DNA of 64,000 bases from an uncultured Candidatus Saccharibacteria bacterium (GCA_964644965.1 CAZXYN010000001.1:221556-285555); one strand, 5' to 3'. Shown: positions 1,059 through 17,846, numbered from the stretch's first letter. Notes: a model not told the origin generated them from the sequence alone. Translations and numbers: made by a program.

Positions 1059-2081
1059 TCATATGATTAGCATGGCATCGCCGAAAGAGTAGAATCGATA
1101 CTTTTGATCTATAGCATGCCGATATATACGCATAAGTTCAGCGGCGGCATCTGGCTCTGAAAGCCCTTGTTTGTCGGCAATAAAGGCTGCAACTAGCATC
1201 AGCAAGCTAGTCTCTGGCAAATGAAAATTAGTAATCATGCTATCTACTGCCTTAAAGGTAAAACCAGGCCTGATAAAGATATCTGTTTCGTTCATTTGCG
1301 GCACAAAATTATCTGTTTGGCGCATTATAGATTCAAGCGTACGGACAGTGGTGGTGCCAACAGCTGTTGTGTGGCGGGATTGATTAAGTAACTCTGCAGT
1401 CTTGCTAGTCAGCTCGAAATGCTCAGCGTGCAGCCGACCAGAACTCAGTTGTTGGTCTGTTAGCTTGGCAAATGTACCTAGGCCAACGTGCAAAGTAATT
1501 TCTGCGACCGCGTGGTTGTTTCTAATTTTTTTAAGCAATTCATCGGTAAAGTGAAGTCCAGCCGTTGGTGCCGCCAGACTACCGAGCGGTTTTGCGTAGA
1601 CTGTCTGATACTCACTAGCGAGATTATCGTTCTGAGCGATGTATGGTGGCAGGGGAACATGTTCGAATTCTCTAAACCGCTCGTCATCATGATTCACCGA
1701 CAAATAAATCGTCCGAATGCCAGAATCGTCGATAGATGTAGTCTTTAGACTCAACCAATCAGTCAGCTGAATCGTTTTGCCAGGTAGAAACTTGCGGCCA
1801 GGACGTACCATTGCTCTTACGGTGTTATTATCGGCTTTTTCTAATACAAATAGCTCTGTTTTGCCGTCGTCAAACAGCCAGCGGCAATGATCAACTTTGC
1901 TGTTGTTGACTGCAAGAGTGGTTGCAGGATCCAGGTACTGCTCTAGTTCATAAAACTTTGCATCGATAATCTCACCGTCGGACAGACGATACACCAATAA
2001 CCGCGCATGGTCGCGAGGACTAGCTGGCGATTGGGCTATCAAACTATCTGGCAGATCAAACTTATATAGGTCTTTGCTCAC
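1059..2081 (-). CDS. queA: S-adenosylmethionine:tRNA ribosyltransferase-isomerase
   Basis: N-terminus YKFDLPDSLIAQSPASPRDHARLLVY and C-terminal FYSFGDAMLI match the QueA pattern; 340 aa is a typical length. Confidence 0.9.
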   Translation of the reverse strand: MSKDLYKFDLPDSLIAQSPASPRDHARLLVYRLSDGEIIDAKFYELEQYLDPATTLAVNNSKVDHCRWLFDDGKTELFVLEKADNNTVRAMVRPGRKFLPGKTIQLTDWLSLKTTSIDDSGIRTIYLSVNHDDERFREFEHVPLPPYIAQNDNLASEYQTVYAKPLGSLAAPTAGLHFTDELLKKIRNNHAVAEITLHVGLGTFAKLTDQQLSSGRLHAEHFELTSKTAELLNQSRHTTAVGTTTVRTLESIMRQTDNFVPQMNETDIFIRPGFTFKAVDSMITNFHLPETSLLMLVAAFIADKQGLSEPDAAAELMRIYRHAIDQKYRFYSFGDAMLII

Positions 2082-2205
2082 TTGTCTAACATACTAACAG
2101 GTTCAGCGCTGATATGCGCGTCATAAAATTGGCAGCTCTCCCCAAAGGGCTTGAAAGTGTTGATTACGGTATACATGACATGCGGTTATTTTCTATACTG
2201 TAGCC

Positions 2206-2616
2206 ATGAACATCTATCTTGATATTGACGGGGTACTGCTGGCGAACGAAAATCGAGCGGCCGATTATGCTGATGAATTTCTAGCGTTCATACTAAAGCA
2301 TTGGCCAAACAATACTTATTGGCTGACAACTCACTGCTGGCACGGTGAAAACAGAACACACGAGGTGCTCGAGCCATATCTACGGAAAAAGACCTTTGTA
2401 TTACTTGATAAAATTCAGCCTACTGATTGGGATGAGCTCAAGACAGATGCAATTAATTTCAAGCAACCGTTCCTGTGGTTTGACGATGACTTATTCCCAG
2501 AAGAACAAGAAATCCTAAAACATTACCGAGCATTAGAGTGCCACCGCAAAATTGACCTGGGCAAAGATTCGCTACAATTGCTGGACGAAATAGTTAATCT
2601 GCGCTCACTTGTCTAA
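2206..2616 (+). CDS. small HAD-like hydrolase-fold protein (hypothetical)
   Basis: N-terminal MNIYLDIDGVLL resembles HAD motif I (DxDG); TATACT 2194-2199 lies 6 nt before the ATG. Confidence 0.45.
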   Translation: MNIYLDIDGVLLANENRAADYADEFLAFILKHWPNNTYWLTTHCWHGENRTHEVLEPYLRKKTFVLLDKIQPTDWDELKTDAINFKQPFLWFDDDLFPEEQEILKHYRALECHRKIDLGKDSLQLLDEIVNLRSLV

Positions 2617-2657
2617 ACTACAATGCTACAAAGTTTGCTAACAGGTATAATAACCGT

Positions 2658-5483
2658 ATGTCATCAGAAAAGTTTGAGCCAAATCCGGGGCAACAGCAGG
2701 TATACGACCACAAGTCTGGACCGCTACTAGTTGTAGCTGGGGCTGGGACGGGTAAGACTAGAGCCATTACCGAAAAAATCAGCAAACTGCTAAGTGAGGG
2801 TGTAAAACCCGAAAACATCCTAGCCGTAACGTTCACAGAAAAAGCCGCTGCCGAAATGTCCGAGCGAGTACAAGAGGGTCAGCGAGGTCTGCTGCTGGAC
2901 TTGCCGATCATGACTTACAACGGCTACGGCGATCGAATTTTGCGCGAGTTTGGCATTCACATTGGATTGCCGCGTACTTTCCGGCTGCTAACATCCCAGG
3001 CAGCAATTGTGTTTATGCGTGAGAGAATTGATCAATTTAGACTAGACTATTTCTTGCCGCTCACAACCGTGCCAGACAGTATTATTGAGGACATTCTGGG
3101 CTACTTTAGCAAGCTCAAGCAACACATCGTAACACCTGAGGCTTATCTGAAGTTTTCCGAGGGATTAACGTCTGAAGACGAGGCACAATCAGCTGACAAA
3201 CGCATGCACCAGGAGCTGGCTGTAGCCTACGACACATACATAAAACTTTGCAGGACTGAAAATGTTATCGATTATGATGATCAAATATTCCTGTCGATTC
3301 AGCTCATAGAAAGTCGTCCGAATGTGCAACAGATTCTGAAGAAACGTTATCACACAGTGTTTGTCGATGAGTTCCAGGATACAAATCCTATGCAGTCACG
3401 TTTTATAGACCTGCTTGTTCCAGAAAGCCGCAACCTAATTGTAGTTGGTGATGATGATCAAGCAATTTATGGATTTCGCGGTGCCACCATCAGTAATATT
3501 CTTAATTTTAAACAGCATTATACCGATGCCGACGATGCAGTTCTAACTATTAACTACCGCAGCCATCAAAGCATCTTAGATGCTGCATATAAGTTGATTC
3601 AGAACAATAATCCAAATAGATTAGAAGCGTCTCTAGGCTTGAACAAGCGACTGACTAGCAATAGACCTGGCAACCAGCCGCAGTTGTTTCATTTTGCAGA
3701 AAATAGTCAGGAGCTAGACTGGCTTGCTAGTGATATTCAGAGAAGACTTGAAAGTCATAATCCAAACGAAAAAATCAGCATAGCAGTACTGGCTCGCAGC
3801 AATAACGGCGTGCAAGCCGTGCACCAAGCGCTCAGCACACACGCAGTTGAACATAGGGTTATTGGGCTAACTCCCGATCTGTACAGTCGTCCGGTGATTC
3901 GGATGATCATAGAGCTAATCAGGACGATTACCGAGCCGGGCAACGACGCTAGCCTTCACCATACACTGATAGGTGAGCTGTTTGGGCTGAGTAACAGCCT
4001 GATTGCTCCTTATGCAAAGAAAGCTCGCTACGAGCACGAGGATCTCGAGGATTTATTGGCGAAGGTACCGGATGCTGCGGTAGCAATTGGTGCCATACGC
4101 AAAGCTCGTGAGAATGCTGCCAGCCAGAGCGTTGGTATGCTGCTTTGGCAATTTTTAAAGGATTCTGGTTTTACCGAGAGGCTGCTAGAGATTGCTCCCA
4201 CAGACGACGCAGCAGGCCATGCGCTTGGCAACCTGAGCCAATTTTTCGACACGCTTAAAGAGTTTGAAAATATCGCAACACAACCAACGACCGCCCAATA
4301 CCAGTTAGCCCTACCAGCATTGATGGCGGCCGGTCAATCTACTGACGACACACTTGGTCTTACCGAAAATGAAATAGTTGTGACTACAGTGCACAAAGCC
4401 AAGGGGCTAGAGTGGGATACTGTTTATTTGCCGCAATTAACCGAACAAAAGTTCCCGATGTGGAAACAAGGTGGTGGCATAGAACTTCCCGAAGATTTGC
4501 GCTCCAGAAGTCTAAGTGATGCCGATGAACACTACAGCGAAGAACGACGTGTCATGTATGTCGCCGTAACCCGTGCCCGCCAAAACTTGTTGCTCAGCTT
4601 TGCCGATGGAGCCCGTAAGCCGTCTAGATTTATAGACGAAATGTTTGGCAAGGGGACTGCCGAGGGAACGCCTTATACAGACGTAGTTAGTTCTCGTGCA
4701 CATCTTGATTCTCCAGTTGATGATATACAGAAAGTTGAAGTGCCGCTTAGTATTTATGATGGCAAGACAGTTACATTAGACGTCACCAAAGCTCAGACAT
4801 TACTAAATTGTCCTCTCAATTTTTATTACAAATACGTATTGCAAGTACCAAAAGAACCAGGTGCAGCCGCAGATTACGGTACTAGAATGCACAGCTTCAT
4901 TCAGGAGATAAATGAGAACCTGTACAAGAAAGAAGATTTGCGTCCGTTAGAGGATATGATAGAAGATCTGGCAAAGGGCTGGCACAAATTTGGCTACGCT
5001 AGTAAATCACAGCAGGAGCGTGCTCTAAACCAGGCAAAAAGCACACTAACAAGCTTCTACAAACAAGCTACTACTAGCCCAGCACCAATCGCCGTAGAAG
5101 ACGAATTCTATGTAGAGATTGCAGACAATCTTGTATTAGATGGTCGAATAGACGCGGTCTACGACAATGACGGAATTGAAATACGTGATTACAAAACCGG
5201 CTATGCTGCTAAGGACGAGACTGAAGCCAAAGCCAAAGCAGGTGAGAGCAGACAGCTTGAGCTTTATGCGCTAGCTTGGCTGACAAAAACAGGTGAACTG
5301 CCAGTCAAGTTAAGCCTACACTACGTCGACACCAACTCTATTGGCTATGCCAACAAAAGGGTCTCGACAATCGAGAGGCGACGCGAGCAGTTGATAGCAG
5401 CTGCCGATAACATCAGGCAGGGTAATTTTCCGCTCGGGTCATCACACCGCTACTGTGTACATCCACCAGTTTCTGAGACTTAG
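2658..5483 (+). CDS. UvrD/PcrA-family SF1 helicase fused to a C-terminal PD-(D/E)XK nuclease domain
   Basis: Walker A AGAGTGKT, VDEFQDTN, VGDDDQAIYGFRGA, VTTVHKAKGLEW; C-terminal GRIDAVY...IEIRDYKTG...QLELYALAW nuclease-like motifs. Confidence 0.85.
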   Translation: MSSEKFEPNPGQQQVYDHKSGPLLVVAGAGTGKTRAITEKISKLLSEGVKPENILAVTFTEKAAAEMSERVQEGQRGLLLDLPIMTYNGYGDRILREFGIHIGLPRTFRLLTSQAAIVFMRERIDQFRLDYFLPLTTVPDSIIEDILGYFSKLKQHIVTPEAYLKFSEGLTSEDEAQSADKRMHQELAVAYDTYIKLCRTENVIDYDDQIFLSIQLIESRPNVQQILKKRYHTVFVDEFQDTNPMQSRFIDLLVPESRNLIVVGDDDQAIYGFRGATISNILNFKQHYTDADDAVLTINYRSHQSILDAAYKLIQNNNPNRLEASLGLNKRLTSNRPGNQPQLFHFAENSQELDWLASDIQRRLESHNPNEKISIAVLARSNNGVQAVHQALSTHAVEHRVIGLTPDLYSRPVIRMIIELIRTITEPGNDASLHHTLIGELFGLSNSLIAPYAKKARYEHEDLEDLLAKVPDAAVAIGAIRKARENAASQSVGMLLWQFLKDSGFTERLLEIAPTDDAAGHALGNLSQFFDTLKEFENIATQPTTAQYQLALPALMAAGQSTDDTLGLTENEIVVTTVHKAKGLEWDTVYLPQLTEQKFPMWKQGGGIELPEDLRSRSLSDADEHYSEERRVMYVAVTRARQNLLLSFADGARKPSRFIDEMFGKGTAEGTPYTDVVSSRAHLDSPVDDIQKVEVPLSIYDGKTVTLDVTKAQTLLNCPLNFYYKYVLQVPKEPGAAADYGTRMHSFIQEINENLYKKEDLRPLEDMIEDLAKGWHKFGYASKSQQERALNQAKSTLTSFYKQATTSPAPIAVEDEFYVEIADNLVLDGRIDAVYDNDGIEIRDYKTGYAAKDETEAKAKAGESRQLELYALAWLTKTGELPVKLSLHYVDTNSIGYANKRVSTIERRREQLIAAADNIRQGNFPLGSSHRYCVHPPVSET

Positions 5484-15554: not shown

Positions 15555-15986
15555 ATGCGTGGCGGAGGACACTCAAACTATATTCATGACGACGTAAAGC
15601 GTGAACGGTGGGCGCGCGAGCTTGCGGAGCGTCAAGATATCCAGCCTGATGAGTTACTGGGGTATTTTCGCAATGAGTGGATTCGCGCCGTCGATCTACA
15701 TCAACGTCGACTTGGAGCTATTTCTTTAGCAAAGCTGATAGAACAGCCGTTTTCTAGACCAAAAGACGAAGAAGACTCACGGCTCATGAAACTTGCCGGT
15801 AATAACTCGGCGATGTATGGGGACGACATTGAAGATGCTATTTACGAAGACCCTTTGATGGACAGACTCATCGAAATGCGACAACAGCACACAGGCGATG
15901 AAGATTACTCTCATCTCATGCGTGCGCGGCGAACAGTTATTGCATACATGCTTCACGCCGCAGCCGAAGATCATTCTGCAGCCTAA
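15555..15986 (+). CDS. hypothetical acidic protein
   Basis: 143-aa ORF; no motif recognised. Confidence 0.5.
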   Translation: MRGGGHSNYIHDDVKRERWARELAERQDIQPDELLGYFRNEWIRAVDLHQRRLGAISLAKLIEQPFSRPKDEEDSRLMKLAGNNSAMYGDDIEDAIYEDPLMDRLIEMRQQHTGDEDYSHLMRARRTVIAYMLHAAAEDHSAA

Positions 15987-16009: not shown

Positions 16010-16579
16010 ATGGCGTTTGAGGATTATAAAACCAAAAAATCGGTTGTAGTTGTCTACACCGGAGAGGGCAAGGGCAAGACCTCGGCCTCTGTTGGTCTGC
16101 TGGCACGTAGTCTCGGCGCAGGCTGGCGTGTAGCGTTTGTGCAATTTATCAAATACTGGCAGGTGAGCGAACACGATTTTATAGAAAAGATTCAGCCGCT
16201 CTACGAAGACAAACTACTTTTTTACAAGGGTGGAAAAGGCTTTTATAACGCCGGTGAGATTTCCGAAAAAGACGTCACCGAAACCGAACACAAACAAGCC
16301 GCACTAGAAACCTTCAAGGTAGCCGAGAACGCCGCTAACAGTGGCGATTATGACCTAGTCATCTGTGACGAGATAAACAACGCAGTCCACGACGGCCTGC
16401 TTACAAAGATGCAGCTAGAGAAGCTCATCGCAAATAGGTCAGAAAAAACTAGTCTGTGTCTGACGGGACGCAATTTTCCAGAAGAACTTCTTGAAAAGGC
16501 TGATATCGCAACCCACATGACCAAAATGAAGCATCACTTCGATGATAAGTTTCTGGCTAACAAGGGAATCGATTACTGA
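16010..16579 (+). CDS. cobO: cob(I)yrinic acid a,c-diamide / cob(I)alamin adenosyltransferase (CobO/BtuR type)
   Basis: VVVYTGEGKGKTSASVGLLARSLGAGWRVAFVQFIK P-loop pattern and LVICDEIN are typical of the family. Confidence 0.85.
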   Translation: MAFEDYKTKKSVVVVYTGEGKGKTSASVGLLARSLGAGWRVAFVQFIKYWQVSEHDFIEKIQPLYEDKLLFYKGGKGFYNAGEISEKDVTETEHKQAALETFKVAENAANSGDYDLVICDEINNAVHDGLLTKMQLEKLIANRSEKTSLCLTGRNFPEELLEKADIATHMTKMKHHFDDKFLANKGIDY

Positions 16580-16706
16580 TATGAATGTCCTGCTGCAGCT
16601 AGGGGAGAGCAGCCGGAGCAAGCGGATTTATTCCGCTGCCCCGCGCGATGAGAGGGGATGTTCCCCTCTCATAAGGCATAGCCGTAACAAAGGAATCGAC
16701 TACTGA
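16558..16706 (+). repeat. 22-nt direct duplication of the cobO 3' end flanking a 105-nt hairpin-rich insert
   Basis: taacaagggaatcgattactga (16558-16579) versus taacaaaggaatcgactactga (16685-16706); the 2 mismatches are both synonymous for NKGIDY-stop. Confidence 0.85.
16598..16706 (+). promoter_or_regulatory. candidate structured leader RNA upstream of TerC (possible divergent yybP-ykoY/Mn riboswitch)
   Basis: GGGGAGAGCAGCC (16602-16614) resembles the GGGGAGUAGC core; hairpins at 16621-16637 and 16648-16672 (11 bp); a TerC gene lies downstream. Confidence 0.25.
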
Positions 16707-16710
16707 CCAG

Positions 16711-16827
16711 AATTTTCAAACGTACCAATTTACAATTTTCAATGACTCAATCATTAAAAATGTTGAATTTTTGAGCCATTGGCACATTGAATCTTGATTG
16801 AAAATTGATAATTGCAAATTGAAAATT
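16711..16827. promoter_or_regulatory. array of four exact TTGAAAATT 9-mers (two inverted, two direct) upstream of TerC
   Basis: AATTTTCAA at 16711 and 16734; TTGAAAATT at 16798 and 16819; spacings of 23 and 21 nt; background is AT-rich. Confidence 0.35.
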
Positions 16828-16844
16828 ATATACTTAAACCAATA

Positions 16845-17846
16845 ATGTACTTATTTGCCGACGCGACTCAAGCGCTTGAGCTCAATATCACAGTCTACTG
16901 GTGGCATTGGTTTCTACTCGGTGCTTGGTTTATGACACTGATTTTTTTAGACATTTTCGTACTACATCGTCACGATCACGTCACAAAGCTTAGGGAAGCG
17001 GTTGTCCAGAGTATCGGCTGGGTGTTGCTTGGCGTATTCTTGGGTTGGGTTATTTGGTCAACCTTCGGTTCGGAAGCTGGTGGACAGTATTTTAGTGGCT
17101 ATCTAGTAGAAAAATCACTGTCCATAGATAATGTCTTTGCCTGGTCACTAATTCTGGCGTACTTAAGGATCCCAAAAAAATACCAGCACCGCGTACTTTT
17201 CTGGGGTGTGATTGGGGCAATTATCCTCAGGACAATCTTTGTATTCGCTGGCATCGCAGTCATTGAACGGTTTGAACCAATATTGATTTTCTTTGGGCTA
17301 CTACTAATCTACAGCGCAATCAAACTACTCAAAACCAACAGAGAGCACGAGTACGACCCGCACAACAGCCGCTTTTTCCGCATAGCCAAAATGTTTATTC
17401 CGGTTAGCCACCACCTGGATGGACACAAACTTTTCACCCACGAAAACGGCAAACGGGTCGCAACTATGCTATTTATGGCACTGCTGGTGGTAGAATTCAC
17501 CGATGTTGTTTTTGCGGTGGATTCGGTACCGGCAATCCTGGCAGTATCGCGTGAGCCATTTATTATTATTGCCAGCAATGCGGCGGCAATCCTCGGTATG
17601 CGTGCATTGTATTTCGTGTTCGACAATATCAAAGAAAGCTTCTGGTTGCTCAATTACGCACTGGGACTACTACTGATGTTTGTAGGCATAAAGATGTTTA
17701 TCGCGCCGAGCGAAATCTTTGGGCATAGTTGGTTCAACCTTCACATTTCTACGAGCTGGTCACTGATAATAATTGGCGGGCTACTGACTCTTGGTATCGT
17801 TGGTTCGCTAGTTATCAAAGATCCGCGTAAGCCGAAAGCAGTCTAG
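16845..17846 (+). CDS. TerC/Alx-family integral membrane protein
   Basis: LSIDNVFAW and FAVDSVPAILAVS motifs; polytopic; start placed at ATG 16845 (track ORF begins at an alternative codon at 16812). Confidence 0.85.
   Translation: MYLFADATQALELNITVYWWHWFLLGAWFMTLIFLDIFVLHRHDHVTKLREAVVQSIGWVLLGVFLGWVIWSTFGSEAGGQYFSGYLVEKSLSIDNVFAWSLILAYLRIPKKYQHRVLFWGVIGAIILRTIFVFAGIAVIERFEPILIFFGLLLIYSAIKLLKTNREHEYDPHNSRFFRIAKMFIPVSHHLDGHKLFTHENGKRVATMLFMALLVVEFTDVVFAVDSVPAILAVSREPFIIIASNAAAILGMRALYFVFDNIKESFWLLNYALGLLLMFVGIKMFIAPSEIFGHSWFNLHISTSWSLIIIGGLLTLGIVGSLVIKDPRKPKAV

Follow-up and report, generated by a model that had tools for sequence, protein, structure and literature searches.

A probable small structured insertion element between duplicated cobO ends in a Saccharibacteria genome

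The 64,000-nt stretch of DNA analysed here (the window) carries a 105-nt hairpin-rich insert at the 3' end of cobO, followed by a second copy of the gene end. We found dozens of homologous copies of this insert, with the same architecture, at other genes. It is likely, with a probability of about 0.72, that the insert is one copy of a family of small structured Saccharibacteria insertion elements, which would be tolerated where the gene end, the ribosome-binding region and the translational coupling survive. This reading is carried by the membership of the insert in the family, the patchy distribution of copies with empty sites in relatives, the covarying helices, the flanking duplications and a recurrent open reading frame (ORF) pattern.

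Results

The cobO end and its second copy

The close CobO relatives were all from Saccharibacteria or Saccharimonadales MAGs, which places the window in the Saccharibacteria (TM7). The features around the insert are listed below with the evidence for each.

16010-16579, + strand: cobO (cob(I)alamin adenosyltransferase, 189 aa, intact); ORF list and Pfam PF02572 on the identical product
16558-16579, + strand: left direct-repeat copy TAACAAGGGAATCGATTACTGA, the last 22 nt of cobO including the stop; repeat search and BLAST
16580-16598, + strand: locus-specific leader that separates the left repeat from the core of the element; family conservation is at background upstream of position -3, and length and sequence differ from the leader at the related locus L270
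16581-16706, + strand: spanning ORF, 41 aa, MNVLLQLGESSRSKRIYSAAPRDERGCSPLIRHSRNKGIDY followed by the stop; ORF search, with the same arrangement at other family loci
16599-16611, + strand: conserved single-stranded 5' tract CTA-GGGGAGAG-CA; invariant or near-invariant across the family
16612-16646, + strand: helix P2, in which 16612-16626 pairs with 16632-16646 around the loop TTTAT, with a conserved A-C mismatch and a C bulge; folding and family covariation
16648-16672, + strand: helix P3, ATGAGAGGGGA / TGT / TCCCCTCTCAT, 11 bp and perfect, arms 16648-16658 and 16662-16672; inverted-repeat search and covariation
16673-16684, + strand: tail with the mini-hairpin AAGGCATAGCCG (GGC/GCC), a subfamily-specific 3' extension; shared tail at other loci
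16685-16706, + strand: right direct-repeat copy TAACAAAGGAATCGACTACTGA, an orphan cobO end with the stop TGA; repeat search and BLAST, missing in empty-site relatives
16707-16844, + strand: native AT-rich cobO-terC spacer with promoter-like sites at 16805-16834 and AATTTTCAAT-type repeats, context outside the element; sequence scans, and a similar spacer directly after cobO at the empty site L007
16845-17846, + strand: terC, the downstream gene, 333 aa as called; ORF list

The 3' end of cobO reads ...AAC AAG GGA ATC GAT TAC TGA, and the protein ends ...ANKGIDY-TGA, with a C-terminal motif (ANKGID[FY]) that is kept in about 90 relatives. As the original prediction held, the last 22 nt of the gene recur beyond the insert with two synonymous substitutions (AAG/AAA and GAT/GAC), and N-K-G-I-D-Y-stop is read from both copies. 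The two copies are identical at 20/22 positions and are spaced by 127 nt, with 105 nt in between; weak similarity extends the left copy on to 16586. The repeat pair gave a BLAST E-value of 0.034 when searched against the whole window, and by chance one would expect about 0.003 repeats with an identity of 20/22 or better and a distance of up to 200 nt in the whole 64 kb. By themselves, the two synonymous differences are statistically uncompelling, with an estimated chance of about 0.07; it is the family-wide pattern that carries weight.

The insert has a G+C content of 59%, compared with 26% in the intergenic DNA downstream. It is single-copy in the 64-kb window, as judged by BLAST and by a covariance model with filters off; near-matches at 2131, 5240 and 63734 were discarded because the remainder of the element was missing there. 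We found no transposase, integrase, recombinase or reverse transcriptase within +/-6 kb of the window copy, in agreement with the prediction.

Fold of the insert

Two strong hairpins had been predicted between the copies. The 11-bp hairpin at 16648-16672 was recovered with perfect arms as P3. The pairing at 16621-16637 is also present, and it forms only the tip of the longer helix P2. From 5' to 3', the family architecture consists of a single-stranded purine tract YYA-GGGGAGAGCAGCC, the P2 helix, which is variable in sequence, GCGCG-W, the P3 helix TGAGAGGGGA-NNN-TCCCCTCTCA and often the tail AAGGCGAAGCCG. The core is about 75-90 nt long with about 60% G+C, and the conserved stretch runs from 3 nt before the G-run to about 7 nt past P3. 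The invariance of the 5' tract is to be read with the search pattern in mind, which itself imposed GGGGAGAGCAGCC. The tail and its variants were found at the unrelated loci L216, L225, L232, L249, L257 and L262, in addition to L270.

Both helices covary. In P2, changes on both sides were found in 10 of the 12 pairs (one pair is CG:23 GC:23 AU:4 UA:1), and this helix was supported independently by un-fitted MAFFT/RNAalifold; the closing pairs of P3 covary as well (AU:28 UA:19 CG:3). A model-fitted alignment of 53 copies had 96% of cells paired and both-side changes in 18 of 23 pairs, values that were matched by 0 of 500 shuffles and that slid registers likewise fell far below. G-U pairs outnumbered A-C pairs by 24 to 9, which identifies the strand shown as the folding strand. 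A closing helix between leader and tail (P1) was rejected, as its conservation was absent across copies.

The insert contained no terminal inverted repeats, the internal helices being its only inverted repeats. No intrinsic terminator was called in 16580-16706, and no U-run follows either hairpin, P3 being followed by AAGGCATAGCCG. The cmscan that had been proposed for the insert was run and revealed no known RNA family: no Rfam family, the yybP-ykoY Mn2+ riboswitch that often precedes terC included, matched the insert at E<=10, and the other copies and variants searched were likewise without a match at E<=1. ARAGORN reported nothing on the insert.

Additionally, the 5' purine tract AGGGGAGAG is the mirror image, not the complement, of the purine 5' arm of P3, GAGAGGGGA. 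The tract and the arm leave the same junction in opposite polarity, which is the geometry of an antiparallel purine-motif triple helix. Among eight variant types, tract and arm change together, with a mirror-match length of 7.0 for matched and 5.5 for mismatched combinations (permutation p = 0.005), and one variant has a perfect 11-nt mirror. Considering the small sample and the low complexity of these sequences, we regard this covariation as a lead and not as a finding.

Filled and empty sites among relatives

To follow the suggestion that empty sites should be sought in the cobO-terC regions of relatives, 80 cobO loci from GTDB species genomes were surveyed. A second NKGID-type gene end within 700 nt downstream was found only at L017 and L049, both of which carry a homologous insert with the same motif set after cobO; more than 70 further cobO loci have neither the insert nor a second copy. 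The closest syntenic relative found was L270, whose CobO is 86% identical and which shares the gene order atpB-grx-cobO-terC-SNase. This locus has the element at the same cobO-terC junction, with the same tail. Between the window and L270, identity is about 92% in the element and 76% in the cobO DNA, and one of the differences is a compensatory change from G-C to A-T in P2.

Empty sites were present in the same CobO clade (L008, L271 and L007), and L005 and others are empty as well. The site at L008 reads ...TTCTAG-CC-ATG(terC); at L271 the cobO stop is the start position of the next gene, and at L007 a 150-nt AT-rich spacer resembling that of the window lies right after the cobO stop. Filled loci are scattered over the CobO tree. 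At the strain level no empty site was found, as contigs with an identical CobO or TerC were all filled. The best explanation of these results is that the window copy entered the cobO-terC junction in an ancestor common to at least one other lineage.

A dispersed family

Metagenome contigs were scanned with the motif pattern GGGGAGAGCAGCC...GAGAGGGGA, which revealed 58 loci, of which about 48 have the full architecture. These strict copies lie at more than 15 kinds of locus. Covariance-model scores were 75-95 bits, and covariance-model searches added more divergent copies, including a variant with GGGAAAAGAGCAGCC and TGAGAAAAACC/GGTTTGTCTCA. The additional copies for which a search had been suggested were not in the 64-kb window, where the insert is single, but occur by the dozen at other genes in metagenomes and Saccharibacteria genomes; this family of homologous copies contradicts a single-copy, unconserved insert as left by a chance duplication. 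The combined pattern had 0 matches in viral contigs, and nothing similar to the element was found in phage and plasmid collections. As markers by themselves, the P3 hairpin was dismissed for matching unrelated terminator-like hairpins in viral contigs, and a 14-mer for being non-specific.

The distribution of copies is patchy. In 525 kb of cobO-centred Saccharibacteria DNA there were only 5 copies, carried by 4 of 81 sources, and sister lineages differ; the rpsF-ssb-rpsR region, in turn, has 4 copies inside 3.6 kb at one locus. Types of P2 are common to different loci, and one locus can carry different types. From two observations, the patchy distribution and the copies at many loci, we infer that the elements are mobile. 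No autonomous partner with the same ends was present among the loci examined. Literature on repeats, MITEs or RNA motifs of Saccharibacteria or CPR yielded nothing relevant, and the family is apparently undescribed in Rfam and in the searchable literature.

Duplicated gene boundaries

Direct repeats of 11-57 nt flank the element in about 22 of 45 distinct loci, with lengths that vary by locus, and roughly every second copy lacks a recognisable flanking repeat. What is repeated is either the end or the start of a gene. Elements recur at the cobO end (in many lineages), at the alaS end, between atpA and atpG and at the end of a small zinc-ribbon gene that overlaps nadD; further recurrent sites are pgk-tpiA, where the start of tpiA is concerned and the element is antisense, the start of a winged-helix gene, and groEL. 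These duplications elsewhere, together with the empty sites and the dispersed family, support the claim that an element inserted at the gene end and duplicated its target.

The two copies are near-identical at some loci (47/48 at L215 and 25/25 at L225). Over all repeats, the differences between copies fall 8/9/36 on the three codon positions, with 32 synonymous and 14 non-synonymous changes; this excess at third positions exceeds what is expected for a freely drifting orphan copy. Mosaics were also present: in the L049 repeat, 26 identical nt are followed by a stretch in which 7/7 codons differ synonymously, and L232 is similar. The copies at L256 end in two different natural C-terminal types, CCEGLPQNV-stop and CCEGMVLEN-stop. 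Different natural allele types in the two copies, as at L256, L049 and L232, require recombination between lineages, and the second idea of the original prediction, an ancestral gene end displaced by incoming DNA, may hold for the family.

In the window and at L270, the right copy is closest to the left copy of its own locus (20/22 and 16/22), and the two right copies match each other at far fewer positions (12/22). This pattern would require either gene conversion or a duplication that was made anew more than once. Together, the mosaic and own-copy patterns demand gene conversion or inter-lineage recombination on top of any initial duplication. At L226, the cobO end carries, ahead of the family copy, an unrelated 82-nt insert with a perfect 50-nt duplication, which brings the cobO ends at this locus to three; no second copy of this insert was found in the data examined. 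Pairing of an antisense RNA of the right copy with the left copy was considered, as it fits the two wobble-compatible differences in the window, and was ruled out by the many transversions at L049.

An open reading frame across the element

The second copy had been said to keep its coding sense, and the 41-codon ORF, which the prediction lacks, is a concrete counterpart of this. Its ATG lies 1 nt past the cobO TGA; the frame crosses the leader and the whole element, reads the right copy in the cobO frame and stops at TGA 16704-16706. The orthologous spanning ORF at L270 differs in length by an in-frame 9 nt. P3 and the tail offer a single stop-free frame, ...CGC GAT GAG AGG GGA TNT TCC CCT CTC..., which encodes R-D-E-R-G-Y-S-P-L, whereas the frame in which the 5' half is read varies with the locus, and all three are used.

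We examined 19 loci with 3'-end repeats for a right copy in an open frame with a start codon before the element. This arrangement was found in 14 of the 19, against one third expected (p = 4e-4), and in 11/16 when counted by independent groups (p = 4e-3); the rule is broken at 5/19 loci, and AT-richer variant copies do not clearly follow it. It also holds at L267, where a gene start is duplicated (a 5'-end duplication). In the antisense pgk-tpiA copies (L252 and L254), the ORF opens at the orphan tpiA start, crosses the element and closes with a TAA on the real ATGCGTAA.

The start of the spanning ORF typically overlaps the upstream stop (TAATG, TGATG or ATGA), and its stop overlaps or adjoins the downstream start (TAATG at L017, TAG-ATG at L270, TAA-ATG at L215 and TAAT-ATG at L242). 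In the atpA-atpG copies L217, L233 and L260, the ORF ends ..TGA, overlapping ATGA. At four atpA-atpG loci, the ORF begins on the atpA stop, 28-29 nt ahead of the core, and its stop lies on or beside the atpG ATG; the four leaders have the same position and different sequences. The nadD start lies inside the right copy at L216 and L257, and an 85-nt nested insert at L273 leaves the ORF open. As judged from these sequences, the variety of frames, the unshared atpA-atpG leaders, the nested insert and the in-frame 9 nt suggest that what is preserved is the passage of ribosomes, not a peptide, and we infer that ribosome transit is under selection.

A profile of twelve spanning ORFs matched 20 hypothetical proteins, which are 33-76 aa long and lack a Pfam domain, and seven more of the hypothetical proteins that it matched end in ...HFDDKFLANKGIDF. 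Gene callers occasionally annotate spanning ORFs.

Discussion

How insertions may be tolerated at coupled genes

In compact operons, the last ~20 nt of an upstream gene would also hold the ribosome-binding region of the downstream gene and often its start codon. The AAR-GGN codons of cobO, about 11 nt ahead of the terC ATG, would be the ribosome-binding region in compact operons, and with the nadD ATG inside the last codons of the zinc-ribbon gene, the shared segment there would hold the downstream start. To be tolerated, an insertion would have to leave both roles intact, and duplicating a long target could do so, such that retention of the ribosome-binding site would go along with a complete upstream gene. 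At cobO, the left copy finishes the gene and the right copy is an orphan.

The ORF from the upstream stop through the sole open frame to the right-copy stop beside the downstream start may act as a termination-reinitiation relay, and coupling would be kept only where the length of the insertion lets the reinitiating ribosome finish at the original stop. Such a relay would account for repeats that end at the stop and measure at least about 19 nt at cobO, for the kept coding sense and for a rule that is independent of orientation. In the window itself there is nothing to relay to, which speaks against a relay at this locus. The right copy and the intact relay ORF are probably neutral relics here, because terC lies 138 nt further on behind its own promoter-like sites. 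As candidates for the origin of the duplications, we consider widely staggered cuts, as in IS1634/IS1549, or replicative template switching; gene conversion and recombination between lineages would have followed.

Several observations stand against this explanation: no enzyme gene is nearby, terminal inverted repeats are lacking, about half of the copies have no recognisable flanking repeat, some loci break the ORF rule, and the right copies in the window and at L270 resemble their own left copies far more than each other.

Alternative explanations

The core is strongly conserved where the adjoining spacer has diverged, both at the atpA-atpG loci and between the window and L270, and this would also fit a cis-acting RNA useful to the host. 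Such an RNA, a REP-like mRNA stabiliser or processing site or a tuner of downstream translation, would have been copied to operon junctions, with the duplicated ends as by-products. The covarying helices with near-invariant single-stranded stretches, the diverging leader beside the conserved core and the positions of copies within ribosomal-protein and ATP-synthase operons agree with this explanation, and so does orientation: the excess of G-U over A-C pairs favours the strand that is sense to most neighbours, with about 24 loci sense to both neighbours and about 7 antisense. We nevertheless consider it unlikely. The carriers are few and differ between sister lineages, antisense copies obey the same ORF rule, types of P2 cross loci and mix at one locus, and Rfam has no match; moreover, translating ribosomes would unfold the structure if the ORF is translated.

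We give somewhat less credit still to a cassette that carries a conserved gene end as a second homology arm and spreads by natural transformation and RecA, or by loop-out and Campbell-type re-entry, such that the two copies derive from donor and recipient genes. This would explain the mostly third-position differences, the repeats at L049 and L232 in which an identical stretch joins a saturated one, and the two C-terminal types at L256. The same gene ends are also used across lineages, the cobO end in more than 15 and the tail ATRGTTCG in at least 6, and L272 retains the order cobO end, element, cobO end despite a different downstream gene. However, a cassette leaves the colonisation of new loci unexplained. 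The many near-identical repeats are what in-situ duplication would produce, a perfect 50-nt duplication surrounds the unrelated insert of L226, and in the window as at L270 the right copy follows the left copy of its own locus.

Ribosomes might also skip the insert by leaving the first copy at one codon and landing on its counterpart in the second, as in phage T4 gene 60 or the mitochondrial byp elements; the gaps of the byp elements are 27-55 nt. TAC-TGA in both copies and the hairpin-rich gap between them would suit such bypass, which we regard as very improbable: cobO reaches a stop of its own, as a whole gene, ahead of the insert, no gene is interrupted, and bypass is unneeded. Furthermore, bypass does not require the open frame, which is open far above chance, and start codons overlapping the upstream stop fit reinitiation. 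Gene-60-type bypass elements are themselves mobile, which speaks for such a reading, but the gene 60 gap is 50 nt, in contrast to 105-127 nt here (bioRxiv 10.1101/2022.08.31.505936).

Finally, a local duplication that arose by chance next to a common hairpin or terminator, or a scar left when an integrative element was excised, would fit the single copy in the window with no recombinase nearby and is refuted by the family data, given the chance expectation of 0.003, the missing U-run and terminator call, the dozens of homologous copies with the same architecture at other genes, and a covarying 75-nt core that integrative scars would not share at unrelated targets.

Comparison with known systems

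The insertion element that we favour resembles small non-autonomous repeats of the REP and MITE type most; what is unusual is the long, variable duplication of gene boundaries and the spanning relay ORF. Like the REP, BIME and REPIN sequences of Proteobacteria, it is short, G+C-rich, hairpin-forming and dispersed, and lies within operons or just past stops in either orientation. REPs are palindromes of 20-40 nt without target duplication that are tied to RAYT transposases, whereas the element has two different helices with conserved single-stranded tracts, long flanking duplications and usually a position inside a short ORF. Membership among REPs or REPINs was rejected, as these insert without duplication, whereas roughly one locus in two has a duplication here.

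Bacterial MITEs (Correia/NEMIS, RUP, BOX and Nezha) are likewise small, non-coding, multi-copy and patchy, are co-transcribed with their neighbours and have no transposase of their own. Their termini are inverted repeats, and their target duplications are short and constant in length. The MITE-like character given in the original prediction therefore stands for the dispersed family with dozens of patchy copies, and fails for a classical MITE, since the ends are mirror images instead of inverted repeats and the duplications, at 11-57 nt, are long and variable.

Integrative islands at tRNA and tmRNA genes, as well as the mobile ORF of Allomyces atp6 with its duplicated C-terminus, displace and replace the 3' end of a gene. 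The likeness is that the gene is intact, a slightly different second end lies beyond the insert and the differences look allelic; those elements, however, span kilobases and encode an integrase or endonuclease, whereas the insert has about 100 nt and no enzyme. An integrative element with an att duplication was rejected because no recombinase lies within +/-6 kb and the same 75-nt core occurs at many genes. A diversity-generating retroelement, in which mismatches are confined to template adenines, was also rejected: the window pair differs by G/A and T/C, other loci show every kind of difference, no RT is found among the neighbours, and the targets are housekeeping genes.

Bacterial precedent for target duplications of highly variable length is provided by the IS4-related IS1634 and IS1549, with very variable direct target repeats of 8-514 bp for which there is no mechanistic model (PMC2266710). 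These are elements of 1.5-2 kb with a DDE transposase and inverted ends, and no such gene or ends were found near any copy here. Toleration of small palindromic repeats in translated sequence of a reduced-genome bacterium is seen in the Rickettsia palindromic elements, of which 85 of 728 copies in R. felis lie within ORFs (PMC1166351). Those repeats lie inside host genes and lengthen the host protein, whereas the element occupies the space between genes, has a short ORF to itself and is accompanied by a duplicated gene end; a frame that stays open through the element in its host context is common to both, though here it belongs to a separate short ORF.

Implications

A more specific reading is tentative, and we would rate it well below the insertion element as such: an enzyme-less, translation-transparent mobile element of coupled-gene junctions, which would duplicate the segment that holds gene end and ribosome-binding region and evolve one open frame. 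Its purine tract might fold back on P3 as a triplex, in ssDNA or RNA, and could be an insertion signal that gives the long variable duplications. If true, this would be a new kind of bacterial mobile element, without an enzyme and with ribosomes relayed across it, and the mirror symmetry of the purine tract, if it is real, would make a purine-motif triplex of a kind that is rare in nature.

In Saccharibacteria and other candidate-phyla bacteria, genomes are tiny and tightly packed, and their repeats and mobile DNA are almost uncharted. For annotation, the family is searchable and accounts for odd duplicated gene ends and for spurious hypothetical proteins of 30-75 aa. Besides IS1634/IS1549, it may offer a second, independent system for the origin of long variable target duplications. 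It also suggests a rule by which insertions between overlapping, coupled genes may be tolerated, namely that the shared segment is duplicated and the frame is kept open.

Mirror symmetry within the element

The element, a small structured GC-rich insertion element of Saccharibacteria, carries a 5' purine tract (16599-16611) that mirrors the purine arm of its helix P3 (16650-16658) in the window. The tract and the P3 arm vary jointly in variant copies (permutation p = 0.005, n = 8), and their geometry would be compatible with an antiparallel purine-motif triple helix.

Additional inserts within and beside element copies

Small hairpin inserts were found nested inside the element copies of three compared loci, where they occupied the P3 loop, the region between helices P2 and P3, and P2, respectively:

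L273 297-384, nested small hairpin insert
L017 about 2425-2462, nested small hairpin insert
L241 within 2030-2132, nested small hairpin insert

The 85-nt nested insert of L273 left open the spanning ORF, the short frame that crosses the element and ends at the stop of the right repeat. We also found an unrelated insert at the cobO end of L226:

L226 6156-6237 (locus as oriented in the analysis), hairpin-rich insert of 82 nt between two cobO-end copies

This insert (GAATGAATTC...GGGGTCCCCAGCGGACCTGTCCGCAGGGGTGTCCT) was flanked on both sides by a perfect 50-nt cobO-end duplication and lay a short way upstream of the family copy, which gave three successive cobO ends; no second copy of it was found among the loci examined.

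Family copies at other sites

L265 contained four family copies within 3.6 kb (1484-5031; one strict and three AT-richer variants), a density far above that of the window's genome, and these lay in the intergenic spaces of rpsF-ssb-rpsR and in the space after a tlyA-like gene. A divergent copy was present in L076:

L076 2886-2981, minus strand, antisense and immediately 5' of the cobO start (3001)

An open frame ran across this copy in phase with cobO, and an N-terminally extended CobO could therefore be predicted by a gene caller.

Regions flanking cobO in the window

15555-15986, conserved 143-aa ORF directly 5' of cobO
16726-16830, repeated AATTTTCAAT / ATTGAAAAT motifs in the AT-rich spacer before terC

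The ORF, for which no Pfam match is on record, was syntenic in L001 and in L270, the closest syntenic relative. Within the spacer, the motifs built two pairs of 13-18-nt inverted repeats and were accompanied by a 14-nt tandem pair; the spacer repeats overlapped promoter-like hexamers at 16798-16846. A comparable AT-rich spacer followed cobO in L007, one of the relatives with an empty site. The 16726-16830 region may represent an operator or promoter region of terC.
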